A stretch of DNA of 64,000 bases. Origin: a virus. The notes under the pieces are model-generated. The model was not told the DNA's origin and made no database searches. It saw only the letters and a program-made list of their open reading frames with translations. Position 1 is the stretch's first letter, and each line of letters starts with the position of its first letter. The stretch lies in IMG/VR virus record IMGVR_UViG_3300042341_001047; one strand, 5' to 3'. The translations under genes were made by a program, and so were the position numbers. Below are positions 1,234 through 63,535 of the stretch, piece after piece.

Positions 1234-2145
1234 CTAAAGGATAGTTATAAAATTATGAACTATACTTTTAATATCTTCGGTGATCTCGTATTTTTTACCA
1301 TCATACTCTATTACAACATTTTTAATATTATCTTTATTAAAACCTAGGTCTATTATATCTTTATCTGAAATAATATAGTCTATTTTAATAGAGTCAGTAA
1401 TTATTGATAAATTAATAGGCGATGTAATATTGTAGAAATATATCTCTACATTTTTATCAGATTTTGATATGAAATATTTCACACCTTCTATATTAGAATA
1501 ATTATGAATGTCCATATTTTTATAATAATATATTTCATCATCCACATAACTATTTTCTAGAGTATAGTTGAATTTATTGGATTTTAATAGGTTAAATAAC
1601 CAATCTTCAGTTATACCATGTATTTTTAGATATTCATCTAAAGTTAGATTTGGAAGAAATTTTATTAAGTGCTCTCTATCAAATACCATAAGATGTAAAC
1701 TAACTTGATGTTCATGAAAATGATAGAAGTTAGATTTCTTATCATTTGATGATAAAGCATTTATAACAACATCATCTATTTTTAGGTCATAAATAATATG
1801 ATAGAAAATATCATAATTATATGTTAAAGCATATTCTGATAGTTTTTTAACTTGATATATATTAGCCCAACCATAATCAGGAAGTCCTCTACTTATTTTA
1901 ATTGATTTAGTTGGTGTTTTATGTAAAACCCAAGAGTAAAGTATCTTTTTACCAAAATTTAATACCGGATTTTCTTTTGTCTGAATATAATAATCACATA
2001 AGCCAGTAACTTCAGTTGGTAAAATAATAGGGCTATTAAGCATAACATCTAGCCCTAATTTTTTTAATATTCCAATATTTTTAACTAGAACATCTATTTT
2101 CTCTTGTGTGTTACAATAAGAACTTATAAGTACAATTTTTTTCAT
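1234..2145 (-). CDS. hypothetical protein (possible glycosyltransferase-like N-terminus)
   Basis: 303 aa ORF; no decisive motif. Confidence 0.55.
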   Translation of the reverse strand: MKKIVLISSYCNTQEKIDVLVKNIGILKKLGLDVMLNSPIILPTEVTGLCDYYIQTKENPVLNFGKKILYSWVLHKTPTKSIKISRGLPDYGWANIYQVKKLSEYALTYNYDIFYHIIYDLKIDDVVINALSSNDKKSNFYHFHEHQVSLHLMVFDREHLIKFLPNLTLDEYLKIHGITEDWLFNLLKSNKFNYTLENSYVDDEIYYYKNMDIHNYSNIEGVKYFISKSDKNVEIYFYNITSPINLSIITDSIKIDYIISDKDIIDLGFNKDNIKNVVIEYDGKKYEITEDIKSIVHNFITIL

Positions 2146-2154
2146 TAATTAGTT

Positions 2155-2601
2155 TTATATCCTATAAATTCCCGGTTCATCAGATTCATCTAAGAATCTT
2201 CCAACTTTTATCATAACTGGATATGATGGTAAATAATGAGTTGAATACTTCCCGTGTTGGTCACGAAAGTCCCAATCAATCTTCTCCAACTCACCAACTG
2301 AGTAAACACATCTAATAGAATTAGGAATTCCTTGTCTTTCAGCTAACTCACAAAATTGATTATACATATCAGTGGCAATTTCTTCAACTGATTCTGGTGT
2401 AGTTGTACAACCAGGATGAACATCAATATCCATTGGTATTACAATACTATCTGAATACTTAGTATTGATATTATTAGCAATATCTTCAGCATTTTTTTGA
2501 AATGATTTAGGAGTTGCGGATAAGATATGACAATATTTTATCCAATCACCTGGTGTTCCATCTTTAGGACAAACTTTTATGTAAATAACTCCGTATTCCA
2601 T
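2155..2601 (-). CDS. hypothetical protein
   Basis: 148 aa ORF coupled to the upstream HD gene. Confidence 0.6.
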   Translation of the reverse strand: MEYGVIYIKVCPKDGTPGDWIKYCHILSATPKSFQKNAEDIANNINTKYSDSIVIPMDIDVHPGCTTTPESVEEIATDMYNQFCELAERQGIPNSIRCVYSVGELEKIDWDFRDQHGKYSTHYLPSYPVMIKVGRFLDESDEPGIYRI

Positions 2602-3528: not shown

Positions 3529-3750
3529 CTATATATTAAATATAGATTTGATTCTTTCTTTTCTTATTCTAACTCTTTCATATTTAGAGTGAAGACTATG
3601 CCATTCCATTAAAGAAGCATTAATACTTGACTTACCAGTTTGTCTAGACTTCAACATAATCATATTTTTACCACTAAGTAATTGGCCAAAGACATCAAGA
3701 GTTTCTTTATTATCCATAAATTCTTTTAATTTTTTCTTTTCGTCTTTCAA
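3529..3750 (-). CDS. tagged mini-protein carrying a terminase Walker A fragment
   Basis: MIMLKSRQTGKS plus C-terminal RKERIKSIF. Confidence 0.7.
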   Translation of the reverse strand: MKDEKKKLKEFMDNKETLDVFGQLLSGKNMIMLKSRQTGKSSINASLMEWHSLHSKYERVRIRKERIKSIFNI

Positions 3751-3892
3751 TTTTATCTCTATACTTACGAGAATTAGACATTATTGTATAAATTTCTTTA
3801 CTAAATTTTTCTAAAATATTATTTTGATATTTAGATTTACTCTGATTTATCATACCAATATGATCCAATACAATAATATCTCTTTTAATCAT
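3710..3892 (-). CDS. tagged mini-protein carrying an SF4 helicase Walker B-like fragment
   Basis: DIIVLDHIGMI plus C-terminal RKEKIKRIY. Confidence 0.6.
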   Translation of the reverse strand: MIKRDIIVLDHIGMINQSKSKYQNNILEKFSKEIYTIMSNSRKYRDKIERRKEKIKRIYG

Positions 3893-4124
3893 TTAATAGT
3901 TGGTCAATCTTATTATTTCTTTTTTCCGCTTTTTCTTTAGCCAAACGGATAGCCTTTCGTTCTTCAGATTCTTCTGTTAAATTTGTTGAGTTATAATAAA
4001 CTCCAAGTTGGTCTATTAAGTCCTCATAGTTACTATATTTAGATTCAGATTTATCTAAACCATAAACCATATAATCACCATATTTAGTACCACCAAATAT
4101 GTCTTTGTAATATTCTTCTTTCAT
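3885..4124 (-). CDS. tagged hypothetical protein
   Basis: C-terminal RNNKIDQLL. Confidence 0.65.
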   Translation of the reverse strand: MKEEYYKDIFGGTKYGDYMVYGLDKSESKYSNYEDLIDQLGVYYNSTNLTEESEERKAIRLAKEKAEKRNNKIDQLLND

Positions 4125-4459
4125 TCTAATATATTTTTAATTTTCCAATCTCTTACATTTTCATAAAAATCAATAAAACTATTCATTCTATGATTCTGAA
4201 TATTTTTGAATGATTCTATTTTATTAATAATATCATCAATCAATTCTTTTTCTTCAATTAATTGAGAACCATCTGAACCAGGATATCCTAACCAGATTTT
4301 AGGCTCCTTGTTCTTCCTACCATCTAAACAAATTTCAATTTCATCACTATTTAAATGATGGTCTGATAAGTATTTAGACCATTGTGGTCCACCTAAATTA
4401 CATCTTAGAGAGATAGTTCCCCCGTCTCTATATGAGTCAAAACTTTTTATATTAAGCAT
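4121..4459 (-). CDS. tagged hypothetical protein
   Basis: C-terminal RDWKIKNIL. Confidence 0.65.
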   Translation of the reverse strand: MLNIKSFDSYRDGGTISLRCNLGGPQWSKYLSDHHLNSDEIEICLDGRKNKEPKIWLGYPGSDGSQLIEEKELIDDIINKIESFKNIQNHRMNSFIDFYENVRDWKIKNILE

Positions 4460-13864: not shown

Positions 13865-14066
13865 AGAATCCTATATTTTTTAATTTCTCTTTCATTTCAG
13901 ATTTGTTTTTTGTTAAACCAACAATATCACAAACTTGTTTTGAAATACCACCAGATTCTATTATAAGAGCATCCGGTTTTGTTACATAGTTAATTAGATA
14001 ATCCAATCCTTGTTTAGCGGCAGATTCTAAGTTTTCTAATTTGATATATCTTTTATTAAAGCTCAT
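13851..14066 (-). CDS. hypothetical protein
   Basis: 71 aa ORF in a coupled minus-strand operon. Confidence 0.6.
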   Translation of the reverse strand: MSFNKRYIKLENLESAAKQGLDYLINYVTKPDALIIESGGISKQVCDIVGLTKNKSEMKEKLKNIGFYEFK

Positions 14067-14256
14067 TTTTATTCAGTATTTGTTCAATTTTATAGTCTCT
14101 ATTTTTTCTAAAGTTTATAATAGAGAATGATTCTTCAGATCTAAATCCACAATGTTTACAAATATAAACGAGTGGTTTTGGAATGTATCCATAATTAGAA
14201 ACAGGTTCTGAAAGACTTGTTTTAATATCAGTAGATTCACATTCTGGACAATTCAT
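14056..14256 (-). CDS. tagged Zn-ribbon protein
   Basis: CPEC...CKHC; RDYKIEQIL. Confidence 0.7.
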   Translation of the reverse strand: MNCPECESTDIKTSLSEPVSNYGYIPKPLVYICKHCGFRSEESFSIINFRKNRDYKIEQILNKNEL

Positions 14257-14546
14257 ATATCTAATATCTGATTAATTTTTTTTTCTCTTAAAATTGCTTT
14301 ATTTGTTCTTTCAAATTCACCTCTTTCATCTTTATAACCACAATCATTACAAATACTTTGTGATGGAATAGTCGGTTTAGAACCATCGGTTGGTATAAAA
14401 AACTTCCATTTAATATTCTTACTTTTACAATTCGGACAACCTGATAAATCTTCTAAAGTTCCTATAAATCCTGACTTTTGTAATTTTCCTAAATCATATG
14501 TTTTATTACTTTGATTAGGAAACAAACTAAGTAATTTTTTAATCAT
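14253..14546 (-). CDS. tagged Zn-ribbon protein
   Basis: CPNC...CNDC; REKKINQIL. Confidence 0.7.
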   Translation of the reverse strand: MIKKLLSLFPNQSNKTYDLGKLQKSGFIGTLEDLSGCPNCKSKNIKWKFFIPTDGSKPTIPSQSICNDCGYKDERGEFERTNKAILREKKINQILDI

Positions 14547-15612: not shown

Positions 15613-17145
15613 ATGTTAAAAAGATACTTTGATTTTGTAAATGAATCTCTAAACTTAATACTAGAGTCCGATGTTGTTTATTCTAGTAAACTTAGAAATG
15701 TATTATCTAAAATAGATAGTGAAATCTCTAGAAAACTTATTGAGATAGAAAATAGAGACCTTCCAGTTAGAAGTAACTATTTTGATATCATTTCAGATAA
15801 AAATGATATGGTTTCATTTATACCAGATAGAAAAGCTCAAGAAATACTTAAAGATGTTAAAGAATTCTGGAGATTCAATGGATCTGGCGGAGGTTGGTTA
15901 AAACACTCAGAATCAAATGCTGAATTGTTTTCTAAATTAGGATATGTTCCAGAAGGAAATCCTTATTCACCAAACTCAAGAGATATTGGTGAAATAGTTG
16001 CAGAAACTACTTCAGAAACATCTGGTAACACATATTGCTGGGTTAAATTCATGAATGGTACTGGAGAATATATTGGACAAGGAGTTTATAATAAAGAAAA
16101 ACTTATAAAAGCAGAAGGAATTAAAGAGAAAGAAGTTTGGACTAAAAGTAGACAAGAAATCGGTGTAGGTAGAGGAATTAGAGCTTTATTATTAACAACT
16201 GGTGAAAAGTTTTTAGATAAAGATATTGAACAATTTGTTAATATTTATAAAGCAACAATTGATAAATTAAACGATAAGTTTAGTTTTTTTGAAGTTGTTA
16301 GTGGAACAGATATTCATTATTGGTATAATTATGATAATTATTACCAAAGAAGTGGATCATTAGGAAGTTCTTGTATGGCAAGTGCAAGAGCAAGTTGGTT
16401 AGAAATATACACTGCTAATCCAGAACAATGTTCAATGGTTATATTCAAATCACCAGATGATATTAATAAAATAGTTGGAAGAGCTATCTTATGGACTTTA
16501 ACAGATGGTAAAAAGTTCATGGATAGAATCTATACTATAAATGATTCAGATGTTCAGTTGTTTAGAGAATACGCTAAAGAAAATGGATGGTATGCAAAAT
16601 ATCATAATAGTAGTACATCAAATTCCGATGCTTACGCACCAGATGGTACAAAAACAAACTTGAATTTAAGGGTTAATCTTTCTCAGAAAGACTACGACTA
16701 TTTTCCTTATTTAGATACTTTAAAATATTTTACACCAGGAAGTGGAATATTAAATAACACTGATGGTGAATATGCACTCGAAGATACTGGAGGTGGTCAT
16801 TCATCTTGTGATTGTTGTGGTGGAAGTGGTAGAACTGAATGTGGTGATTGTGATGGAAGAGGAGTAGAAGACTGTAGTAATTGCGATGGAAGTGGAAAAG
16901 AAGAATGCTCAGAATGTGATGGTAATGGGAAAAACACTTGTAATAATTGTGATGGTTCAGGAAAAGTAGAAGATGATGAAGGAAATGAGATTGATTGTGA
17001 TGAGTGTGATGGAGATGGTGAATTAGAATGTGATGATTGTAATGGAAGAGGTAAAGTAGATTGTGATGAGTGTGATGGAGATGGTGAACACGATTGTAAT
17101 AGTTGTGGTGGAGATGGTGAAGTTGATTGTTACGAATGTAACTAA
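15613..17145 (+). CDS. head-leader protein with SCM/RAILW/MDRIY domain and C-terminal CxxCxGxG array
   Basis: Paralog of 33339..34292; nine CxxCxGxG repeats plus terminal CxxC. Confidence 0.7.
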   Translation: MLKRYFDFVNESLNLILESDVVYSSKLRNVLSKIDSEISRKLIEIENRDLPVRSNYFDIISDKNDMVSFIPDRKAQEILKDVKEFWRFNGSGGGWLKHSESNAELFSKLGYVPEGNPYSPNSRDIGEIVAETTSETSGNTYCWVKFMNGTGEYIGQGVYNKEKLIKAEGIKEKEVWTKSRQEIGVGRGIRALLLTTGEKFLDKDIEQFVNIYKATIDKLNDKFSFFEVVSGTDIHYWYNYDNYYQRSGSLGSSCMASARASWLEIYTANPEQCSMVIFKSPDDINKIVGRAILWTLTDGKKFMDRIYTINDSDVQLFREYAKENGWYAKYHNSSTSNSDAYAPDGTKTNLNLRVNLSQKDYDYFPYLDTLKYFTPGSGILNNTDGEYALEDTGGGHSSCDCCGGSGRTECGDCDGRGVEDCSNCDGSGKEECSECDGNGKNTCNNCDGSGKVEDDEGNEIDCDECDGDGELECDDCNGRGKVDCDECDGDGEHDCNSCGGDGEVDCYECN

Positions 17146-17555
17146 TCTATAACTTGATTAATTTTCTTATCTCTTATAAATGATCTATATATCTGGAAAT
17201 ATTCAGATTTCTCAGATGCTATTGTTTCTTCAAAATTACTATAATTTAGTTCAATTTCAATTGAAAGTGGTATAAAATTACCATACCAATCAAAACAATC
17301 ATTTTGTATTTTTACAATAGTGGATGAATTAAATATACTAAGAACCTTAAATTGATCAAAAATTATAATTGTTCTTTTATCAAAAACATCAATAGGATCA
17401 TTGGTATACTTATTCATCCATTCTTTGAAAAATCGGATAGAATTTTCACAATTTGTAGTAACCTTTATATAAGACCTACCTGTTTCAGATACCATATTAA
17501 CTTTAGATATCTCACCTATAACATTTAATCCATTTTTGTCATCTATTAAAATCAT
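17142..17555 (-). CDS. tagged protein, possible degenerate tail-tube-like fragment
   Basis: FFKEWMN...KRTIII...FDW...SIEIELNY; RDKKINQVI. Confidence 0.55.
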   Translation of the reverse strand: MILIDDKNGLNVIGEISKVNMVSETGRSYIKVTTNCENSIRFFKEWMNKYTNDPIDVFDKRTIIIFDQFKVLSIFNSSTIVKIQNDCFDWYGNFIPLSIEIELNYSNFEETIASEKSEYFQIYRSFIRDKKINQVID

Positions 17556-19988: not shown

Positions 19989-20267
19989 TTAGATTTTTTC
20001 TCCTAAAATAAATTCTATCTTTTTGAATCTATCATCAGTATCAGTGAAGATAATGAATACCCTATCGATATCTTTAAATTCTTTTGATTCGCCAGTAAAT
20101 TCATTAACCATTACATCTTTTTTGTAAACAACATCAATTCCAGGTTCTTCACCTAAAAATCTACGCATATCTTCTTTAATCTGTGATAGTTTCCAGTCAT
20201 CATTTTTAAAATCAATCTTAGAGATGTAGTCTCTAATCGCCATTTCTTTCATTGAGCTCATATTCAA
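19989..20267 (-). CDS. hypothetical protein
   Basis: 92 aa ORF. Confidence 0.6.
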   Translation of the reverse strand: MNMSSMKEMAIRDYISKIDFKNDDWKLSQIKEDMRRFLGEEPGIDVVYKKDVMVNEFTGESKEFKDIDRVFIIFTDTDDRFKKIEFILGEKI

Positions 20268-20661: not shown

Positions 20662-20907
20662 TCACCAGATTTGTGGGAAGTTAGTTGGTCCTTTTGGAGT
20701 AGAAGTTATAATAACATTAGGAACATCTATTCCAAATATTTTACCTATTTTTATTTTTCTTAAATATCTTTTAGAATATTCAACACCTGATGTATCTTTT
20801 TCAATGAAGTGAATACCTGGTCTCACATATCTACCTATTCTGTTCATTTGATTTCTTCTTTTTACTTCTTCTTGTTTTCTTGTGAGTTTTAGATGATTCA
20901 GCTCCAT
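20662..20907 (-). CDS. tagged mini-protein carrying a terminase coupling-motif fragment
   Basis: RKIKIGKIFG followed by VIITSTPKGPTNFPQIW. Confidence 0.65.
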   Translation of the reverse strand: MELNHLKLTRKQEEVKRRNQMNRIGRYVRPGIHFIEKDTSGVEYSKRYLRKIKIGKIFGIDVPNVIITSTPKGPTNFPQIW

Positions 20908-21328
20908 ATTTATAATCTAAATAGAATAAAGTACCTGATGGAGCAGACATTGGAGTTACTCCTTTTTTCATCAACTCTTTATATTCTTCATCATCTTCTA
21001 ACTTCTTTTCAGTAAATTCACCACCTTCAATAACAGCTTCAATTTTACCATCACGATTTTCAGAATTTACTCTACTTTTTACATCATCAATTTCTTCTTT
21101 TGATGCGAATCCTATTATTTCATTGGACATTAATTTTGATGATACTTTCATAGCCATTGGTAGTAAACTTGGAAACTCTTCAGTTTTAGTTTCTTCTAAT
21201 ATTTGATTTGATTGATTTTCGGCTAACTGAGCTAAATTGTCTAATTGAGATCCAGTCATACCCATAGACCCTAAGATAGGAGCCCATTTTTTCATTAATT
21301 CTTCTTTATTTGGTTGTTTCATAAACAA
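20831..21328 (-). CDS. tagged fragment of T4-type major capsid protein (N-terminal part)
   Basis: LMKKWAPIL, AENQ, LLPMAMKV, GVTPMSAPSGTLFYLDYKYG; internal RDGKIEAVI. Confidence 0.7.
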   Translation of the reverse strand: MFMKQPNKEELMKKWAPILGSMGMTGSQLDNLAQLAENQSNQILEETKTEEFPSLLPMAMKVSSKLMSNEIIGFASKEEIDDVKSRVNSENRDGKIEAVIEGGEFTEKKLEDDEEYKELMKKGVTPMSAPSGTLFYLDYKYGAESSKTHKKTRRSKKKKSNEQNR

Positions 21329-32543: not shown

Positions 32544-33302
32544 ATGTATATGAGTAAAAAGGGCGACGCTAACAATCAAATACAAGAAGGAATTCAGGAA
32601 TTTGAATACAGAAAAAACATCAGAAAAAAGAATTCTCTGACTAAAGAAGAATTTCAAAAGTCTAATGTACATTTAAGTGATAAACAACAAAGCTTATATA
32701 AAGGAATAAGAAACAGCACATTAACTGTTGTTCACGGACCAGCAGGAACCTCAAAAACATATACAACCTGTTACGCAGCTTTAGCACTATTAGCTGATAA
32801 GAAAATCGAAAAGATTATTATAACAAAACCTATACAAGAATCTGGTGAGAATTTAGGTTTTTTACCTGGAAGTATGGAAGATAAACTACTTCCATATAAA
32901 CAATCTTACTATACAACATTTTGTAAAATCATTGGTAAAGTATCAACTGATATGTTATTTGCTACAGAAGAGATTGTATTCGAACCATTAGCTTATATGA
33001 GAGGTTCTACTTATGATAATTGTATAATGTTATTAGATGAGTGTCAAAATGCTTCAATCAAACAATTAATGCTTTGGGTTACTCGTTTGGGTAAAGATTC
33101 AAGAGCCGTAATGATGGGAGATACATCACAATATGATGTTAGGAAAAAAGACTCAGGCTATAATGACTTCATTAAGATGGTAGATGGTATGGATGAACTT
33201 TGTATGTTTGAATTTAATAACTCTGATATTGTTAGAAATAAATTCTTAATACAAATTGCTAATAGATACGATAAATATCGTTCAGAACAAAAAGAGTTTT
33301 AA
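32544..33302 (+). CDS. phoH: PhoH-like ATPase
   Basis: GPAGTSKT, GENLGFLPG, LAYMRGST, LDECQN, TRLG, GDTSQYD, DIVRN. Confidence 0.95.
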   Translation: MYMSKKGDANNQIQEGIQEFEYRKNIRKKNSLTKEEFQKSNVHLSDKQQSLYKGIRNSTLTVVHGPAGTSKTYTTCYAALALLADKKIEKIIITKPIQESGENLGFLPGSMEDKLLPYKQSYYTTFCKIIGKVSTDMLFATEEIVFEPLAYMRGSTYDNCIMLLDECQNASIKQLMLWVTRLGKDSRAVMMGDTSQYDVRKKDSGYNDFIKMVDGMDELCMFEFNNSDIVRNKFLIQIANRYDKYRSEQKEF

Positions 33303-40435: not shown

Positions 40436-41074
40436 TTAATATTTGTAGTTCTTAGTCGCCTTACGACATTTCAACTGACTTTTAACATTATTCAATTCAG
40501 ATGTTCCCATTTCAAGACGAGCACTCTTACGCTTCATAACTAAACCTTCAATCATATCGATTGGTGTTAGTTTATCAAATAAGTCTTTAAATCCATTTAA
40601 GTAAGATTTAACACGATAAACATTTGTTGTAATATTATAAAGGTAATCTTTTTCAGAATCGACTTGACCGTAAATATTATCCAATAACTGAACTCTTTCT
40701 TGAAAAGTCTTACCAACTAAATAGTCACCATCTAAAGCAAGAATGTCAAAAATAACAAACTTATGGTTGAATGGTTGTCTAGTTTCATCAGATTTGTTCT
40801 TATTCATATACTCACCATTAAGAACGGTCCATCCACCAGTACCTCGGTAGATGTCTTTTACTTCTTCATCACTTAAACGGAAGTTAGTTAGTCTTTGATT
40901 ATGACGATTCATAACTATTGATTTAACACCATTAGTGAAAATCAAACAATTAGAACCGTTAAGTTTTGGCTGAGCAATTAGGCTATCATCATCCCAGAAA
41001 TCTAGTTCACTATCAGGAATAGCATTCTTAGGTCTTGGTGGATAGATATATCGATATGTTATAAATTTAGACAT
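40436..41074 (-). CDS. ATP-dependent ligase adenylation-domain protein (no OB domain)
   Basis: QPKLNG, LNGEY, FDIL, EGLVMK, C-terminal LKCRK. Confidence 0.8.
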   Translation of the reverse strand: MSKFITYRYIYPPRPKNAIPDSELDFWDDDSLIAQPKLNGSNCLIFTNGVKSIVMNRHNQRLTNFRLSDEEVKDIYRGTGGWTVLNGEYMNKNKSDETRQPFNHKFVIFDILALDGDYLVGKTFQERVQLLDNIYGQVDSEKDYLYNITTNVYRVKSYLNGFKDLFDKLTPIDMIEGLVMKRKSARLEMGTSELNNVKSQLKCRKATKNYKY

Positions 41075-41093: not shown

Positions 41094-41708
41094 TTATGAT
41101 AGTTGCCAAGACATTTGACCGAAAATTTGAGTTAAATCTTCATTATGTTTACGGGATGTTGAACTATAAACTTTTGTATTAATAGCCATATTCAACTTAT
41201 AATCCATTATTTCTAAAGGATTGTGAACTTTAAGTTTTTTCCCATTGAAGTCAAATATTATAAAAGAAGCATTATTATCATTATGAAAGAAATCAACTTT
41301 ATATTCTTTGTATTTAGGGAATAATTGTAATTTCTCGATACTAATTAAAGGTTTCTTTTTATATTTAAAATCAACATATCCTAATCTATTAGGTGTTGAA
41401 AATTCATCATCATATCCGTCTTTAGAATACTTAGAATATCGATTTTTATCATCAATAAGAATATCAATATCATTTGTATCTCTGTATATGAGACCAAGAA
41501 TATTTAGAGCTAATGAACCACTGATGATATCATTGGGAAATTCATCTGAAATAAAGTAAAGTAAATCTTTGTATTTCTCTTTCAAAGTAGGTTTGAAATC
41601 AATCTCACCATTGAGAACTTTCAGTTTATAATCTCTGAACTCTGTTTGTAACTCAGTAGGAGTTAAATAGTTGGTATGTACCGTACCTAAACGATATGAA
41701 TTTGCCAT
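41094..41708 (-). CDS. pol-beta superfamily nucleotidyltransferase-like protein with N-proximal tag
   Basis: ISGSLAL...DTNDIDILI, KVDFF; RDYKLKVL. Confidence 0.7.
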   Translation of the reverse strand: MANSYRLGTVHTNYLTPTELQTEFRDYKLKVLNGEIDFKPTLKEKYKDLLYFISDEFPNDIISGSLALNILGLIYRDTNDIDILIDDKNRYSKYSKDGYDDEFSTPNRLGYVDFKYKKKPLISIEKLQLFPKYKEYKVDFFHNDNNASFIIFDFNGKKLKVHNPLEIMDYKLNMAINTKVYSSTSRKHNEDLTQIFGQMSWQLS

Positions 41709-41722
41709 TAAAATAAAATTAG

Positions 41723-41793
41723 AGGTCGGGGGTAGTAACTAACTACCGTATCATCATTTGCAATGATGTACCTAAGATCTCGGTCACCCGACC
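41723..41793 (-). tRNA. tRNA-Cys(GCA), atypical T-loop, no encoded CCA
   Basis: GGTCGGG/CCCGACC acceptor, ACC/GGT D stem, CATCA-TTGCAAA-TGATG anticodon arm, GGTAG-TTAGTTA-CTACC T arm, U discriminator. Confidence 0.8.
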
Positions 41794-41801
41794 ATATAGT
41801 A

Positions 41802-41942
41802 TTAAGAGTTTATTTCCTCTTGTAGTTCCGACATCAATAATTGATATTGGTAATCTTGTGCCATTGAAATTAAATCAGAAAGTGAATTCACATCCATTTC
41901 TGGGTTTTCTAAATAATCATTAATAACTTGTGTAGCGTCCAT
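41802..41942 (-). CDS. small acidic protein (46 aa, MDATQVINDY...)
   Basis: ATG lies downstream of the TATATTTG element; the longer ORF call would span the promoter. Confidence 0.55.
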   Translation of the reverse strand: MDATQVINDYLENPEMDVNSLSDLISMAQDYQYQLLMSELQEEINS

Positions 41943-41970
41943 ATCTTTTATATTTATACAAATATAGTAA

Positions 41971-42366
41971 TTATTTTCTAGATTCCAAAATATCACCAAT
42001 AGTTGTTTTAGAATAACCTATCATTTTTTCAACCCCTAAGATATGATTAATTCTTTTTTGTCTTAAAACATCTTTTGGATAAACAGAGTTTAAATCAATC
42101 AACCGACCAGTTGAATAAGTATGCTTAGTTACTCTGATACCTCTTTTACTCACATACTCAACATATTTTGGTTGAAATTCTTCTGGTAGGTATTCATAAC
42201 CAACACATTCATATCCATTACAATAATATCTACCACAATCACAATTCCAATAATAGTAATCATCATCGTAATCATCATCCCAATAACCCCAATAGTAATC
42301 ACTACCAAGTTCAGCCTTGGTTATTATCTTATCAAGAATTTCTGTTCTATTTTTTCTCAGTGCCAT
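41971..42366 (-). CDS. tagged hypothetical protein with D/Y/W-rich segment
   Basis: RQKRINHIL near the C-terminus. Confidence 0.6.
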   Translation of the reverse strand: MALRKNRTEILDKIITKAELGSDYYWGYWDDDYDDDYYYWNCDCGRYYCNGYECVGYEYLPEEFQPKYVEYVSKRGIRVTKHTYSTGRLIDLNSVYPKDVLRQKRINHILGVEKMIGYSKTTIGDILESRK

Positions 42367-42754
42367 TTATTAATTCGCTTAATCTCCAATCCCTGATGTT
42401 GATTTTGAAATCATCAAAAGAATGAGAATTTGACATTATATCTATTCTTGTATTTATTTCTTTTATTAAGTCACTTATTTCCATATCTCTATTTCTACAT
42501 TGACCATCATAAACACATTCAATACTTGTTTTATTAGAAGCTAATATCCACATAGTAATATTTGAGTAAATATCAAACATTCGTTTTACTTGTGCTAAAT
42601 ACTCTTCAGCAGATTGTCTAGACTTACCAGATACATCAACATGAACGGTAAAGATAGGATTATTTAAATTTAGTTCAATTTTTTCTGGAGCAACACCATA
42701 TGAGTGAGTAAATGGATTGTTATTTATAGCATTTTGAAGATTTTGAAAAGACAT
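42347..42754 (-). CDS. tagged mini-protein carrying a portal-like fragment
   Basis: APE...IFTVHVDVSGKSRQSAEEYLAQVK; RDWRLSELI. Confidence 0.6.
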   Translation of the reverse strand: MSFQNLQNAINNNPFTHSYGVAPEKIELNLNNPIFTVHVDVSGKSRQSAEEYLAQVKRMFDIYSNITMWILASNKTSIECVYDGQCRNRDMEISDLIKEINTRIDIMSNSHSFDDFKINIRDWRLSELINGTEKK

Positions 42755-42788
42755 AATAATAAATTTTTATTTATTATATCTACTTTAC

Positions 42789-43268
42789 TTAAAATGTTTC
42801 TAATACAGAAGCTGTCTTGTGGAAGATTTTATCTTTAGCTTGTTCTTTATCTAAAAATCCAGCCCAATCAATCTCTTCAATTTGAAGTCTTTCTTTTGGA
42901 ATAACTTCCGAATCTAAACCAATTTCAGAGACATCATTTATATGAACCGTATATAAAGTTATACTTTTATACTTTATGCCTTTCTTATTTTCATAAAAAA
43001 CAACAATAGGATTTTTAATATCTAATATTTGACTCTTACTAATTATAACTGAGGTTTCTTCTTTTAATTCACGAAGAGCAGCATCTAAAGTAGATTCACC
43101 TTCTTCTATACCACCTTTTGGAAATGAATAAGTTCCGAACCAACGAGAATTGGATGGATGACAAAGTAAAACTTTCTCACCTTTTAATATAATTACAACA
43201 CCGGCTGATTTCTTCATCTTGCTATCAAAAGGATCAAACTCAAAGAATTTATTGATTCTACTTAACAT
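42789..43268 (-). CDS. Nudix hydrolase
   Basis: SAGVVI, FPKGGIEEGESTLDAALRELKEET, EEID. Confidence 0.88.
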   Translation of the reverse strand: MLSRINKFFEFDPFDSKMKKSAGVVIILKGEKVLLCHPSNSRWFGTYSFPKGGIEEGESTLDAALRELKEETSVIISKSQILDIKNPIVVFYENKKGIKYKSITLYTVHINDVSEIGLDSEVIPKERLQIEEIDWAGFLDKEQAKDKIFHKTASVLETF

Positions 43269-43750
43269 TATTTCATGTGTCTCACATCTTTATGTGATGA
43301 TTTAGGATTATTACTATGTGACCACAATCTAGCAAATGGAGTTTGAAAGAAATCATTATAGATTAGTGTATCATCTATATGAAGTGATATATTTTGCTCT
43401 TTACAATATTTAGCTTTAACATTATCCCAAACACCGTCTTCAAACTTCTTTTGAATAGTACCATCTGGAAACTGAATCTCTCCAGTTATGGTAGATCCTG
43501 TCTCAATTAAATAATCATATACTGAAAATTTATGTGTCCACTTGATACCAAAATCATTTAATTGTTTTTCAAAATCTTCATTCCAATGACCACCTGTTAT
43601 AAGGTGAACTTCACCACCATTCTTAACAAATGAATCAGTTAAGAATGAGAAAAAATCCGGCATTGAATCTACAACACCATGTATATCTAAACCTAGTTTA
43701 AATGTACCTGTACTAACTTCTTCATTAATCATTTCACTGAATTTTAACAT
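43268..43750 (-). CDS. HAD-like protein with head leader
   Basis: GLDIHGVVD, LITG, KAKYC, LHIDD. Confidence 0.7.
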   Translation of the reverse strand: MLKFSEMINEEVSTGTFKLGLDIHGVVDSMPDFFSFLTDSFVKNGGEVHLITGGHWNEDFEKQLNDFGIKWTHKFSVYDYLIETGSTITGEIQFPDGTIQKKFEDGVWDNVKAKYCKEQNISLHIDDTLIYNDFFQTPFARLWSHSNNPKSSHKDVRHMK

Positions 43751-43772
43751 AAACTATATATAAAATTTATTT

Positions 43773-44171
43773 CTACAATAAATTTCGCCAACCCCCTCTT
43801 TCAACCGGAATTACTTTACAAAGATAATCATTTTGAGAAAAAACAGCATTACAATAATAAATTTCTTCTTCTGAATTTTCAAAATGCATATCGATTTTAA
43901 GTCTCATTAAATGAGAAAACTTCCATTCTCTATTTGTGAAGTTAATATCAGTTATTCCAAGTTTATTAGCCAACTCATAAACAACAACGTGTTCATTTTT
44001 TATTCCAAGATTTTTATTTTTTTCATCATATCTTCTTGTAACTATACAAACATCATGTCCTTCTTCAATATATTTTTTTGCTAATTGTTGTATTTCCTCT
44101 TTTTGATGATTGATAATCTTTCCACCAAATTCATCATCTAAAGTCCCATCAAAATCAAAACTTATTCTCAT
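43773..44171 (-). CDS. HAD-superfamily phosphatase-like protein
   Basis: ISFDFDGTL, IVTRR, K, HFEN. Confidence 0.75.
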   Translation of the reverse strand: MRISFDFDGTLDDEFGGKIINHQKEEIQQLAKKYIEEGHDVCIVTRRYDEKNKNLGIKNEHVVVYELANKLGITDINFTNREWKFSHLMRLKIDMHFENSEEEIYYCNAVFSQNDYLCKVIPVERGGWRNLL

Positions 44172-44173
44172 TT

Positions 44174-44794
44174 TTATTTATTAAAAGTTTTTTCATAAAC
44201 ATTCCTAATGGCTTTTATACCATTTGGTTGAATCTCTCTTGTTCCTATACCCGCAAAATTTTGAGAAGTTATAGAAGGAACATCTTTCATTTCAACAAAT
44301 TGAAGAGTTGAGTAAGACCATCTAAACCACTTATCTCTAACTTGATCAAATACAAATACTTCTTTTTTATTATTTATACCCATCATTACTGCATATCCGG
44401 TACCACCATCGACAATATCAAATTCACCTTTATTGTAATATCCTTTTGAATTTTTGTGACCAGATTTAATAATTGTGCTAATTGCAAATATTTGATCCGA
44501 GTATTTCACTTGAGACCAATTACGAGCTAGCAAATTCATATACTTATGAATTCCATATCTATTTAGAAACTTATTTGCTTTATTAACTTCAATAACACCT
44601 TCATTATAATCATCATCTGAAATTTCAACTTTATTAGGTGATGTGTGTTTAGGTGTTTTATGAGAGTAGGCTCTGGTAGTAACATCATAGGTAACTCCTT
44701 CGTTTTCCCAGACGGTATCCGCTCCGACTGCACCACCAGAATGACAAACTACTTTTGTCAAGTCAATGGGTTTTTTATCAAAAATATCAATCAT
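44174..44794 (-). CDS. SLOG-superfamily protein
   Basis: HSGGAVGAD, VDGGTGYAV, FAGIGTR. Confidence 0.7.
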   Translation of the reverse strand: MIDIFDKKPIDLTKVVCHSGGAVGADTVWENEGVTYDVTTRAYSHKTPKHTSPNKVEISDDDYNEGVIEVNKANKFLNRYGIHKYMNLLARNWSQVKYSDQIFAISTIIKSGHKNSKGYYNKGEFDIVDGGTGYAVMMGINNKKEVFVFDQVRDKWFRWSYSTLQFVEMKDVPSITSQNFAGIGTREIQPNGIKAIRNVYEKTFNK

Positions 44795-45041
44795 TTAGTA
44801 TTTTGTTTATTAAAAATTCTCTCTTTATCGATAAATCCTTTTCAAAAAATAGATTTATCGAATTTTCTCCACTAAAAGAGCTATAGATATTCAATTTATA
44901 TTTACAATCTTGATAATGTTTATCTAAGTATTTAATTATTAAATATCTAGCATCATCTATATTGGTTACTTTATCACTATACGGAACATCAAAACTCTCC
45001 ACTAAGTTTTTATTAGTTTCTAAATAAATATTTATCATCAT
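44787..45041 (-). CDS. tagged hypothetical protein
   Basis: C-terminal KREFLINKIL. Confidence 0.6.
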   Translation of the reverse strand: MMINIYLETNKNLVESFDVPYSDKVTNIDDARYLIIKYLDKHYQDCKYKLNIYSSFSGENSINLFFEKDLSIKREFLINKILND

Positions 45042-45904
45042 AGTTTTACCTCCATACCTTGAGTGTTCCAGATGGCCAATGCACCATCCATCCTAAAATA
45101 CAGGTCTCTTATATCAATCGGTTCATTAAAAATGTATTTTTTAAGACAAAGAAAAAATCTATTTCCATTACAACCAACCATTTCTTTATGTAAGATATTA
45201 TTACCTACATCAATATAAGAATTAATTCTAAAATTCTCAACTCTTTCTACCGTAAATATCTTAGTACTAAATACTAAATCGATTGTATCCAATATTTCTT
45301 TAATCTCTGAGAAATCATTAAATGAATAAATCACTTCATCGTTTTTAATACAAGCAATTTTTAATCCTAAATGATTATATTTATTTATAACATCTTCAAT
45401 AATAACACGTTGTGCTTTACCCTGTCTCTTTGGATTAATATTACCGAATATATATTGTCGGAATTGTTTAGAGTGGTTAAAAATCTCAGGGAAATCAAAT
45501 TTTGATAAGAAATCTTCATATGAGTTTCCCAATTCATTTAGGAAATCAGGATCATATTTTTTAAGAACCTTCCAGTTTGCTTTTTTAATATCTATAGATA
45601 TATACTTACAATCTTCTGAATATTCAAAGTTTTTAGTAACTGGATAATCAGGTATTAAATTATCATCTTGAAGCTCATTATAAGCTCTTGTATTTTTGAG
45701 AAAATCAATTATCTGATTTGATTTTTCAATTCTATATTCATAAAGATCACCATACTTTTCTTCAGCTTCTTCATAAAGTCTAATTAACTCTTTAATATTT
45801 TTCCACTTCTCCAACTTAGAGAATTGTTCTATATAATAGTCAAAGTGTTCGTATTCGGGAACACTTATGTCCATTAATTTACAAAATCCTTTTACGTCTT
45901 TCAT
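45038..45904 (-). CDS. hypothetical protein (weak polymerase-palm-like motifs)
   Basis: ISIDIKKAN and IKNDEV. Confidence 0.55.
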   Translation of the reverse strand: MKDVKGFCKLMDISVPEYEHFDYYIEQFSKLEKWKNIKELIRLYEEAEEKYGDLYEYRIEKSNQIIDFLKNTRAYNELQDDNLIPDYPVTKNFEYSEDCKYISIDIKKANWKVLKKYDPDFLNELGNSYEDFLSKFDFPEIFNHSKQFRQYIFGNINPKRQGKAQRVIIEDVINKYNHLGLKIACIKNDEVIYSFNDFSEIKEILDTIDLVFSTKIFTVERVENFRINSYIDVGNNILHKEMVGCNGNRFFLCLKKYIFNEPIDIRDLYFRMDGALAIWNTQGMEVKL

Positions 45905-45905
45905 A

Positions 45906-46235
45906 TTAGTTTAATACCTGTTTTATTTTTTCGTCTCTTTGATAAGCTTTATAATCTTCTCCTTCCGTGATAAAATATTCTGACATTTCTTGTTCAGTAA
46001 AATAATACCACTTTATTCTCTCACTATATGGTAAATTCCACCAATCTTTTCTACCAGAATGATATCCATGTTGATCATCTTCAACACAAAAACCATATCC
46101 TTTTCTACCATTAACTTCTGGATCAGCATTAAATTCTAAATTACCTCTTCCTTTGATATCATAATGACTACCAACTTTAATAGTTTTGTATTCTTTGACA
46201 CAAACAACTCTTTGACAATCCCATCTATCTTCCAT
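45906..46235 (-). CDS. tagged hypothetical protein
   Basis: C-terminal RDEKIKQVL. Confidence 0.65.
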   Translation of the reverse strand: MEDRWDCQRVVCVKEYKTIKVGSHYDIKGRGNLEFNADPEVNGRKGYGFCVEDDQHGYHSGRKDWWNLPYSERIKWYYFTEQEMSEYFITEGEDYKAYQRDEKIKQVLN

Positions 46236-46392
46236 CGAATAGTTTTTTAATTTTATATTTTCTAGCTTTTATAACATTAACTCTACATCTTAACTTGGAT
46301 AACTCTGAGTAAACATCAGTTACATTCATAGCACCGTAGCTCGAGTTCAAAATCATCTTGTAATAAGCTAATTTACTTTCTAATTCTCTCAT
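46225..46392 (-). CDS. unlisted 55-aa tagged mini-protein carrying the family B DNA polymerase motif
   Basis: Manual translation MRELESKLAYYKMILNSSYGAMNVTDVYSELSKLRCRVNVIKARKYKIKKLFDGR; overlaps both neighbours (ATGA coupling upstream). Confidence 0.75.
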   Translation of the reverse strand: MRELESKLAYYKMILNSSYGAMNVTDVYSELSKLRCRVNVIKARKYKIKKLFDGR

Positions 46393-46994
46393 AAATCTCC
46401 GTGATGGTCAATTTTTTCCATAGTTCTCTTTGACATTATATTAGTAATATCACCTATGTTAAAAGGTCGATATTCACCAAACATTTTATAAGCAACATCA
46501 ACTCCAACGTCCATAGAACGACCAAAGTCTGGGATAGAACCGTGTGAGTGACCATAAAGATGTATAACACCTTTGTGACTACCTAACCAAACTCGATGTG
46601 AGTAGTGAGAAAGGAATAGTTTTGTTTTACCAATATCTAAAGTTAAAACATCTTGAACTGATGAAAAAAGTTCAATTGGGTTAAATGATGTATCGTGATA
46701 TTTTATTTCTTTGTCTACTATGTGTTGGTCATGATTTCCTAAAATAAGATGTACATTTTTACAAACAATGTAGTTTCTAAATTGAAGTATGTTATGAACT
46801 CCACCGAAACTCCAATCACCTAAGTGATAAAGAATATCATCTTCTTTAACATATTTGTTGATACCATCAACAAGTGCCATATTCATTTCATGTACAGAGT
46901 TAAAATCTCTATATCCTGAAGACCAGTTCGATATTTTGGGACCAGCTATGTTAGTGTGTCCAAAGTGTGTGTCTGATGTAAACCATATATTCAT
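46389..46994 (-). CDS. calcineurin-like metallophosphoesterase
   Basis: SDTHFGH, HLGDW, GNHD, LSHY, GHSH. Confidence 0.9.
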   Translation of the reverse strand: MNIWFTSDTHFGHTNIAGPKISNWSSGYRDFNSVHEMNMALVDGINKYVKEDDILYHLGDWSFGGVHNILQFRNYIVCKNVHLILGNHDQHIVDKEIKYHDTSFNPIELFSSVQDVLTLDIGKTKLFLSHYSHRVWLGSHKGVIHLYGHSHGSIPDFGRSMDVGVDVAYKMFGEYRPFNIGDITNIMSKRTMEKIDHHGDL

Positions 46995-47063
46995 AATACA
47001 AATATAAGGATTTAAAATAAAAAAACCACTCTATTGAATGGTTTTCTAATTTTTTTCAGATTT

Positions 47064-47929: not shown

Positions 47930-48802
47930 ATGAAAAATCTATCATCTCAAGTTGGTCAAACTCCACTAATTCAAATATCAGAAAGAATCTTTGCAAAATT
48001 CGAAGGTCAAAATCCAAGTGGATCCATAAAAGATAGAATGGCATCTTTTATAATCAATGATGCTGAAAAAAACAATCTTATTAAAAAAGGTGATACAATT
48101 ATTGAAGCAACATCAGGAAACTCTGGAATTGCTTTTGCTTTCTTAGCAGCAGAAAGAGGTTATAAATGTATTATTATTATGCCTTCTAATATGAGCGAAG
48201 AACGAAAACAAATGTTAAGAATTTATGGAGCTGAACTTATTGAAGTTCCTGATGGTAAATTTGATGATGCGATTGCTTTAAGAGATAAAATGGCTAAAGA
48301 AAATGGATACTTTAACCCTAATCAATTTCATAACCCTCTAAATATACAAGCTCATTATGAAGGAACGGGTGTTGAGATTCTACACCAACACACAGAGAAA
48401 ATTGCTGCTTTTGTTGATGGAACAGGAACTGGAGGTACTCTTATGGGTATCTCTCGTCTTTTAAAGATGTATCATCCATGGATGAAAGTTGTTGCTGTTG
48501 AGCCAGCAGAATCTCCAGTTATGTCAGGTGGTCAACCAGGAATTCACGGAATTCAAGGAATTGGCGATGGTTCTAAATTCTTAGTTAATCTAAAAGAAGT
48601 TGATGATATTATGATTATATCAACTGAAGAAGCTAAAGAAAGAGCTAGAAGACTAGCTAAAGAACAAGGTTTATTTGTTGGTATCAGTTCGGGAGCTAAC
48701 ATTTTAGCATCAGAAAGGTTATTAGAAAAGTACCCGGATATGGAAGGTAATATCATTACTATATTATGTGATAGAGGAGAAAGATATCTTTCTTGTTTAT
48801 AA
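47930..48802 (+). CDS. cysK: cysteine synthase (PLP-dependent)
   Basis: GQTPL, NPSGSIKDR, EATSGNSG, GTGTGGT, HGIQGIG, GISSGAN, DRGERYLS. Confidence 0.93.
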   Translation: MKNLSSQVGQTPLIQISERIFAKFEGQNPSGSIKDRMASFIINDAEKNNLIKKGDTIIEATSGNSGIAFAFLAAERGYKCIIIMPSNMSEERKQMLRIYGAELIEVPDGKFDDAIALRDKMAKENGYFNPNQFHNPLNIQAHYEGTGVEILHQHTEKIAAFVDGTGTGGTLMGISRLLKMYHPWMKVVAVEPAESPVMSGGQPGIHGIQGIGDGSKFLVNLKEVDDIMIISTEEAKERARRLAKEQGLFVGISSGANILASERLLEKYPDMEGNIITILCDRGERYLSCL

Positions 48803-63016: not shown

Positions 63017-63045
63017 AAAATCCCACTTAATAAGTGGGATTTTTT
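63017..63045. terminator. bidirectional intrinsic terminator
   Basis: aaaatcccactta-a-taagtgggattttt. Confidence 0.8.
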
Positions 63046-63284
63046 ATTTCTATAGTTCCGTAAAAGTTATTATTTATAATCTTTTTAGAGTATCTACTCA
63101 TAATTGATTTACTTGGTGAGAATTCATCTTTAACATCTAAACCTAAACCAAATATCTTATTAATCTTTCTTTTTCTACTTACATTCTTAGAAGTATATCC
63201 AGATATAACAGAAGTGGTTGTCAATGGAATATAAGGAGCAAAAACATAACCTTGTTCTAAATTACTTTTCTTTCCTATTATCAT
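63027..63284 (-). CDS. tagged fragment of T4-type major capsid protein (C-terminal part)
   Basis: GYVFAPYIPL...[RKRKINKIFG]...FSPSKSIMSRYSK...FYGTI. Confidence 0.72.
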   Translation of the reverse strand: MIIGKKSNLEQGYVFAPYIPLTTTSVISGYTSKNVSRKRKINKIFGLGLDVKDEFSPSKSIMSRYSKKIINNNFYGTIEIKNPTY

Positions 63285-63420
63285 TGAATATTTTTTTAAT
63301 TTTTTCTTTTCTTTTATCTTTTCTAAGAAAAGAACTTAAAAAGTTCATAGAAGAATAGTCATGTAATCTACTTCCAGGTCCACCTAGTACAACATTCCAC
63401 TCATCTCTCGCTTTTATCAT
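63262..63420 (-). CDS. unlisted 52-aa tagged mini-protein
   Basis: MIKARDEWNVVLGGPGSRLHDYSSMNFLSSFLRKDKRKEKIKKIFNDNRKEK. Confidence 0.6.
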   Translation of the reverse strand: MIKARDEWNVVLGGPGSRLHDYSSMNFLSSFLRKDKRKEKIKKIFNDNRKEK

Positions 63421-63535
63421 ATAATCTTTTGATTTTATTTTTTCTCTTTTCAGATCTTTCTTTTTTAGACCATCTGAAAATTGAATCTGTTATAGACTCT
63501 TGAAACTCTTTTGATTGATTTTCCCAAATTGACAT
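63401..63535 (-). CDS. unlisted 44-aa tagged mini-protein
   Basis: MSIWENQSKEFQESITDSIFRWSKKERSEKRKNKIKRLYDKSER. Confidence 0.6.
   Translation of the reverse strand: MSIWENQSKEFQESITDSIFRWSKKERSEKRKNKIKRLYDKSER

Follow-up and report, generated by a model that had tools for sequence, protein, structure and literature searches.

A conserved micro-protein family of megaphages with a look-alike of DNA polymerase B motif B and a recurrent C-terminal peptide

The fingers helix of family B DNA polymerases (PolBs) contacts the incoming dNTP through the signature K-x3-N-S-x-Y-G, known as motif B, whose residues on fingers helix P of RB69/T4 gp43 are K560, N564 and Y567. The initial annotation of a viral DNA stretch had noticed the same signature in a 55-aa open reading frame that fills the gap between two genes and ends in a short basic peptide. 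So short a frame raises three questions, namely whether it is a gene at all, whether its motif has anything to do with polymerases and what a protein of this kind would do in the phage.

The stretch analysed here, which we call the window, covers the first 64,000 nucleotides of a 175,660-bp IMG/VR record (IMGVR_UViG_3300042341_001047; ~28% GC). In GenBank the closest entries belong to two uncultured megaphages, LR745206 (634,780 bp) and LR756502 (642,428 bp), with 84% identity over a polymerase fragment, while 735-kb phages and Lak phages are remoter relatives. Because the nearest relatives measure 635-642 kb, the record must be a fragment of a far larger genome, and the CheckV estimate of '85% complete' is misleading. 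One study counts LR745206 and LR756502 among the largest megaphages and traces them to a lake in France and a subsurface sample from Japan, with no known host (PMC9723777). The locus comprises the following elements.

46225-46392, minus strand: gene of the 55-aa micro-protein (open reading frame, family, dN/dS, AlphaFold2)
46333-46359, minus strand: K12-x3-N16-S17-x-Y19-G20, the look-alike of PolB motif B (pattern location, conservation)
46237-46263, minus strand: C-terminal tag R44-K-x-K47-I48-K-x-L-F52, three residues ahead of the stop
46389-46994, minus strand: 201-aa metallophosphoesterase gene (Pfam Metallophos_2; phrog_547, E=9e-43)
45906-46235, minus strand: 109-aa ORF, function unassigned, with the tag variant RDEKIKQVL+N at its end
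45038-45904, minus strand: 288-aa ORF, inserted in the operon in some relatives and absent in others
44787-45041, minus strand: 84-aa ORF with the tag variant REFLINKIL+ND at its end
47020-47047, minus strand: terminator-like hairpin closing the upstream gene, followed by TATATTTG (47006-46999) ahead of the operon

The frame is present as first described, and residues 12-20 of its product read K-M-I-L-N-S-S-Y-G. The reported overlap with the upstream gene is likewise seen: the ATG of the micro-ORF overlaps the TGA of the phosphoesterase gene (46389-46994) as ATGA, and at the other end its last 11 nt lie inside the start of the 109-aa ORF. Across all six frames of the 175,660-bp record it is the sole match to K-x3-N-S-x-Y-G. 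A rough estimate allows for one chance match of this kind per genome, and it is the conservation of the motif across a family that makes it more than chance.

That family is large. A word-indexed search found 24 close clusters of 54-70 aa with 59-100% identity, and a full HMMER scan of 1.84 billion proteins found 63 representatives at E<=1e-3, nearly all of 46-80 aa and aligned end to end, so that more than 60 clusters from megaphage contigs are represented. The micro-ORF has no match in Pfam, PHROGs or NCBIfam and no usable match in the protein Atlas; no longer or fused form came to light in a search, which is weak evidence. Related loci were not found with a single protein as the query and emerged later with a profile. 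Even profile searches missed the divergent micro-ORFs of W01 and G003, which were found downstream of the phosphoesterase gene, and absence judged from a profile search alone is therefore unreliable. The reading frame is intact in relatives, and N-S-x-Y-(G/S) persists in all close and most distant ones. Pairwise dN/dS is 0.18-0.37 for unsaturated pairs, and the micro-gene is under purifying selection. Motif codons vary synonymously among orthologues (AAG/AAA, AAC/AAT, TCG/TCT/TCA, TAC/TAT, GGT/GGA), which indicates that selection acts on the protein. Clusters, dN/dS, synonymous codons and the overlap together bear out the frame of the initial annotation as a real, conserved and translationally coupled gene, which belongs to a large unannotated family of megaphage contigs.

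Conservation is concentrated in two places. Among 21 orthologues with 31-93% identity the invariant residues are L4, L8, K12, N16, S17, Y19, G20, R44, K45, K47 and I48, and the probability that all five motif positions fall among 11 invariant columns of 55 is 1.3e-4. When the alignment is widened to 54 members with 32% mean identity, only K12, N16, S17, Y19, R44, K47 and I48 are at least 90% conserved; R44 is invariant throughout, G20 is kept in at least 70% of members and the x positions of the motif vary, as they do in polymerases. The strict pattern K-x3-N-S-x-Y-G occurs in 44 of 62 members, with 10 more a single change away, mostly G to S. AlphaFold2, run with the family alignment, predicts a helix at residues 2-16, a loop at 17-23 and a second helix at 24-53 with a mean pLDDT of 85. 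The idea of an intein remnant was rejected, the model being all-helical.

Besides the family itself, G001 holds a 56-aa paralogue-like ORF (L075:1492-1662, minus strand) that has the same tail and lacks NSxYG; it overlaps, and lies directly downstream of, a 260-aa HNH endonuclease gene (1655-2437, minus strand).

Several other genes surround the operon. On the far side of its start, at 47930-48802 on the plus strand, lies a gene for a cysteine synthase-like PLP enzyme (PALP, E=9e-70), which is kept beside the operon in relatives and is probably an auxiliary metabolic gene. The 288-aa ORF at 45038-45904 (minus strand) is possibly a mobile gene, with a weak LAGLIDADG_WhiA-like match (E=0.03). 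Downstream of the operon, at 40436-41074 (minus strand) and in the adjoining 41094-44794, are a small ATP-dependent ligase-like gene, a DprA-like/phrog_768 gene and a HAD-like gene, with NUDIX genes in relatives; these downstream genes form a nucleic-acid end-processing neighbourhood. The initial annotation also placed a host-type promoter at 46999, and this proposal is not supported statistically. The element TATATTTG (47006-46999) fits a Bacteroidota -7 box but stands only 4 nt ahead of the ATG; the Bacteroidota -7 pattern is not enriched (102 found against 106 expected), nor are sigma-70-like sites (17 found against 19.6 expected).

Whether the motif is that of a polymerase is harder to settle. 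The reading of the frame as the PolB fingers motif on its own stands as far as signature, helix and conservation go, whereas descent from PolB does not follow, the profile searches being not significant. Like PolB motif B, the micro-protein has the identical five-residue signature with the same spacing on a predicted helix (residues 2-16) that runs into a Gly-rich loop; its x positions are hydrophobic or variable, and Leu-Lys usually precedes the motif, as in many PolBs. HHalign places the family on the motif-B helix of the C-terminal half of the lineage's own PolB (P=5.7e-4, probability 29.5%, 20 columns), and BLASTP against that C-half gives 7/11 identities (E=0.003 for a single comparison). 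Unlike a PolB, the micro-protein stands alone at 55 aa, a length that leaves no room for motifs A (DxxSLYPS) and C (YxDTDS), exonuclease, palm, thumb or the catalytic aspartates, none of which it has. The Gln that PolBs usually carry four residues ahead of the Lys is a Leu here, and the lineage's real C-half reads N-G-S-Y-G where the micro-protein reads N-S-x-Y-G.

Profile comparisons do not close this gap. None of 54 family members matches Pfam PF00136 (DNA_pol_B) at E<=10, and the ~3 bits that HMMER gives against the C-halves do not rise above what the genome's own ORFs yield as background. A profile search of the PDB recovers one PolB, Deep Vent, at residues 482-499, which are its motif B, with a non-significant E=8.5, and an unrelated Chd1 helix outscores it at E=0.34. 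Homology of the micro-protein to PolB is thus not statistically established, and we give descent from PolB, or selected mimicry of it, a probability of about one half as judged from sequence. Two further likenesses were set aside. An N-terminal resemblance (EKIK..ELES, YY) to the start of the C-half was dropped, as it is not conserved across the family. A 49-aa ORF of LR756502 (L070:1489-1638, ~523.5 kb) with a motif-A-like D-Y-T-S-L-Y-S and a basic tail was not counted as support; it matches phrog_262 at E=5.6e-4, has no homologue in 5.8 billion proteins and may be a chance occurrence.

The polymerase of this lineage is itself broken at the element in question. The sole PolB match in the record lies outside the window.

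G000:C1:85315-86847 (L001:1468-2997), ~85.5-87 kb, minus strand: N-terminal half of PolB

This 509-aa N-half comprises the exonuclease domain, motif A and the first fingers helix, and it breaks off directly ahead of motif B. All 61 related viral loci share this end point, and PHROGs has a family of 502 positions for such N-halves. In LR745206, LR756502, G003 and G005 the C-half is a separate gene of 474-477 aa about 40-130 kb from the N-half (102-133 kb in LR745206 and LR756502); these C-halves begin with the motif-B helix K-L-V-L-N-G-S-Y-G and contain Y-x-D-T-D-S. Neither a YxDTDS motif nor a PolB C-half was found anywhere in the 175-kb record, and by the geometry of its relatives the C-half of this phage probably lies beyond the record's end. 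Motif B is already present in the C-halves of relatives, so the micro-protein is one copy more and does not supply a part that the split PolB is missing. G005 combines the N-half and an uninterrupted C-half with the micro-ORF, and G011 and W02 are without the micro-ORF; a complete PolB together with the micro-ORF in the one case and the absence of the micro-ORF in the others mean that it is not an essential part of the polymerase.

Split PolBs have precedents. Some T4-related Aeromonas phages divide the enzyme into gp43A and gp43B. PhiKZ encodes DNAP-N and DNAP-C, split in a palm insertion (PMC13648687). As in PhiKZ, the lineage's PolB consists of two polypeptides that must assemble. Here, in contrast to PhiKZ, the split falls between the two fingers helices and the genes are 40-130 kb apart, and the micro-protein is a third, dispensable piece rather than either half.

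The strict linkage of the micro-ORF is to the phosphoesterase gene and not to a polymerase gene. In all cases examined the micro-ORF follows the phosphoesterase gene with overlapping stop and start, down to ~32% identity, as seen in the window, in L071, L074 and L076, in P0049 and P0064 (~32% identity), in G003 (62 aa) and in LR745206 (52 aa). The 109-aa ORF is usually, not always, the next gene in relatives, and the 288-aa ORF comes and goes, being present in the window, L076 and W02 (L181) and absent in L071 and G003 (L182). Synteny with the phosphoesterase gene is the strongest functional lead, and on it rests the main rival to the reading that we set out below. According to this rival the micro-protein belongs to the phosphoesterase as a small subunit, accessory or regulatory, its motif being a convergent interface or helix cap unrelated to polymerases and its tag general to the phage's small proteins. 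The overlapping gene pair kept to ~32% identity argues for such a subunit, as do the lack of significant profile similarity to PolB and the chance Chd1 helix that fits the family consensus better than any solved PolB. It leaves unaccounted for that the exact five-residue PolB signature is the family's most conserved part and that G011 and W02 (LR756502) have the phosphoesterase without the micro-ORF, and it sits uneasily with other tagged ORFs that resemble core-protein signatures, for which HMM support is weak. We regard the subunit as possible but on the whole unlikely.

The C-terminal peptide is the second conserved element. The RKxKIKxLF tag noted in the initial annotation is a genuine recurrent peptide of the record, and the micro-protein, with RKYKIKKLF three residues ahead of its stop, belongs to a tagged set of small proteins that we define here and that corresponds to no published family. 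With the pattern R-x-x-[KRL]-[ILV]-x-x-[ILV]-[LFYIW] required within 8 residues of the C-terminus, 19 of 208 non-overlapping ORFs (~9%) end with the tag, at a per-position rate 48-fold the internal rate. Against Markov simulations of the record, the strict form RK.KI[KNLQ].[LI][FY] was found 6 times where 0.07 were expected and a looser one 19 times where 2.8 were expected, 15 of these 19 within 7 residues of the stop. Tagged ORFs often stand in tandem, and the operon's next two conserved genes, the 109-aa and 84-aa ORFs, are also tag-ended. The helix-2/tag part of the family HMM matches other tagged ORFs at E=1e-5 to 5e-4. Examples in the window are listed here.

3529-3717, 3710-3892, 3885-4124, 4121-4459, 14056-14256, 14253-14546 and 17142-17555, minus strand: tagged ORFs
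19989-20261, 42347-42754, 44787-45041, 45906-46235, 63262-63420 and 63401-63535, minus strand: further tagged ORFs
63262-63420, minus strand: tagged 52-aa micro-ORF, one of three consecutive tagged ORFs (63027-63535)

By inspection, neither NUMOD3 (R-x-K-I-S) nor the PP1 RVxF docking motif fits the tag in its spacing, and both were rejected. The tail of the lineage's PolB C-half, R-L-S-V-V-M-D-I-F-G-G (R-x3-V-x2-I-F-G-G), has the spacing of the tag and the I-F-G ending of several tags, a likeness seen by inspection over 9 residues only. C-terminal docking peptides are known from the clamp-binding tails of T4/RB69 gp43, gp33 and gp55 and from PIP boxes, encapsulin cargo-loading peptides and the C-terminus of the HK97 protease. 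Like these, the tag stands at the extreme C-terminus with the spacing hydrophobic-x-x-(I/L)-(F/Y), occurs on many unrelated proteins of one genome and resembles the C-terminus of the lineage's PolB; it is strongly basic where the T4 tails are acidic, and its binding is only putative.

The reading that we tentatively prefer, and to which we give somewhat less than an even chance, is that the micro-protein is a modular adaptor, a motif helix joined to an address tag, with the phosphoesterase as its likely partner. What we infer here concerns the function of the micro-protein, its descent from PolB or mimicry of it, and which hub and partners it binds. The micro-protein would be co-translated with the upstream metallophosphoesterase and would probably work with it. 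In the model, helix 1 has L4, L8, K12, N16 and Y19 (with S17 and G20) on one face, which bears the fingers-like signature; this helix could serve as a stand-in for the PolB fingers helix or as its competitor, the PolB helix being the one that sits exactly at the break of the lineage's split polymerase. Helix 2 ends in the tag R-K-x-K-I-K-x-L-F, which would dock on a hub common to all tagged proteins. T4-type polymerases bind the clamp via their extreme C-terminus, and since the PolB C-half ends in a tail that looks like the tag, our best guess is that the hub would be the replisome or the sliding clamp; a search of the record for the T4-type clamp family PF02916 came back empty, and no clamp gene turned up in it. 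The tag may also be a signal for capsid targeting or turnover.

Some further small ORFs recall segments of core phage proteins. Terminase and capsid protein are each encoded by a single intact gene (C1:137865-139052 and C1:116079-117509, respectively), beside which the record holds two terminase-like and five Gp23-like fragments on small ORFs (E=7e-11 to 6e-3), several of them tagged.

3529-3717, minus strand: tagged 62-aa micro-ORF whose N-terminal part is like terminase Walker A (PHROG, genome and family-HMM matches)
3710-3892, minus strand: tagged 60-aa micro-ORF (family HMM E=4e-4, model positions 18-57)
3529-3717 (minus strand), 20831-21328 (minus strand), 63027-63284 (minus strand) and 32628-33056 (plus strand): terminase-like and Gp23-like fragments in the window
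G000:C1:103039-103215, 110473-110820 and 100499-100852: such fragments elsewhere in the record

The two best PHROG matches of the ORF at 3529-3717, phrog_2 (E=0.017) and phrog_6681 (E=0.021), are both terminase large subunits; a genome search matches it at the Walker A region with E=7.7e-4, and the helix-2/tag part of the family HMM matches it at E=1e-5. The ORF at 63027-63284 (minus strand) matches Gp23 positions 303-333 at E=0.006. For the ORF at 3710-3892, likeness to a DnaB-type Walker B is by eye only, and many tagged ORFs have no recognisable core-protein piece.

These fragments invite a different account, in which the tagged ORFs form a set of baits that would show signature pieces of polymerase, terminase, capsid and helicase and act as decoys or competitors against host sensors or co-infecting relatives, all of them being docked, packaged or turned over alike by virtue of the tag. 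Such an account is attractive in that the tag is shared and enriched across ORFs and that extra terminase-like and Gp23-like fragments, several of them tagged, lie beside intact genes. Bacterial Avs receptors, moreover, are reported to sense capsid, terminase, polymerase and helicase/RecA ATPase (PMC13581612), the very kinds of protein that baits would imitate. The same work reports that Avs sensors recognise whole folds and large interfaces, not 15-residue helices, and that the polymerase shown to be sensed is of family A (PMC13581612). Many tagged ORFs, in addition, lack a recognisable bait, and the only 'motif A' micro-ORF, that of W02, has no homologues. We consider a set of decoys improbable, and we hold in similarly low regard its wider form, in which megaphages of the lineage would place a proteome-wide address peptide on micro-proteins that show the signature helices of core proteins (PolB motif B, terminase Walker A, capsid segments) and intercept partners such as host sensors or rival phages.

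The motif-B DNA of relatives' C-half genes proved to be unusual in its own right. Many relatives carry GC-rich hairpin inserts of 36-48 nt there, at four positions.

L103, L104, L106, L109, L111, L116 and L118-L120: hairpin inserts of 39-47 nt, ~140-160 nt into the C-half gene
L128, L129, L134, L135 and L139: further loci with the same kind of insert
L088, L089, L090, L092, L105, L108 and L137: a third type of insert, 36-48 nt, at N-G-S-Y/G-A-F (the slash marks the insertion point)

For inserts at ..L-A-L/K-L-V.. and ..K-L-V/L-N-G.., the codon before the insert is synonymous with the codon just before the resumed frame, the take-off and landing pairs being CTT/CTA in nine variants, GCT/GCA, GCT/GCT and GTT/GTA. 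A stop follows within two codons after take-off in all but one variant, co-variation is seen in the hairpin stems, and the landing codon comes 5-9 nt after the G-rich 3' arm. In T4 gene 60-type bypassing, for which rules have been described, cases are reported only in topoisomerase genes (10.1101/2022.08.31.505936). Given the matched codons, the stop, the stem and the position of the 3' arm, the C-half inserts fit these rules and, judged by their sequence, look like gene 60-type translational bypassing in a polymerase gene; a literature search found no report of such bypassing for polymerases. If ribosomes do bypass these inserts, programmed translational bypassing would extend beyond topoisomerase genes.

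The third type differs from these. Inserts at N-G-S-Y/G-A-F have no matched landing codon, apart from L117, in which the insert lies one codon earlier (N-G-S/Y-G) and a Ser codon, a candidate landing codon, directly precedes the resumed frame. Downstream of third-type inserts there are GTG or ATG codons for an in-frame restart, and the inserts may cut the gene into a 44-aa helix-P peptide (..KLVLNGSY) and a restarting remainder, so that these loci may encode a three-piece polymerase. In L122, L125 and L131 the C-terminus of an intein (..ILVHN, then S) is found in motif C of the C-half, at Y-x-D-T-D/S.

Tails acquired from mobile elements are known from other split genes. In phage Aeh1 a mobile endonuclease cassette adds tails to NrdA-a/NrdA-b (PMC3045599), and T4 genes 39 and 60 have C- and N-terminal extensions and a 50-nt bypass (10.1101/2022.08.31.505936). 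As in these cases, the micro-gene would join a gene fragment to a short helical peptide that has no relation to the parent enzyme, and as in gene 60 the PolB C-half of relatives carries hairpin inserts in its motif-B DNA. Unlike in them, the locus has neither an endonuclease gene nor a second half, its neighbours being the phosphoesterase gene and the 109-aa ORF, and the tail of the Aeh1 and T4 cases is on one split pair whereas the tag is on ~9% of the phage proteome. We hold it very improbable that the micro-gene is left over from mobile elements moving through the PolB motif-B site, an exon piece with an element-derived tail and little or no function: hairpin inserts at four positions do mark the motif-B DNA of relatives' C-halves as a hot spot, with inteins at motif C, insertions of mobile endonucleases do add tails to split genes (PMC3045599; 10.1101/2022.08.31.505936) and a tail-bearing paralogue lies beside an HNH endonuclease gene in G001, but purifying selection, a motif kept across more than 60 clusters, the fixed position beside the phosphoesterase gene and the lack of an endonuclease at the locus all speak against it.

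This family is invisible to standard gene calling, and even the conservative reading adds to megaphage biology a large family of micro-proteins tightly paired with a phosphoesterase. On the adaptor reading, if the helix does stand in for the fingers helix, the micro-protein would be the first stand-alone polymerase active-site element to occur as a separate small protein, and it would do so where the lineage's own polymerase is already split at this helix. The C-terminal peptide that it shares with other small proteins of the phage may, as far as sequence can tell, be the sign of a system for sorting or docking, not described before, in the largest phages known.
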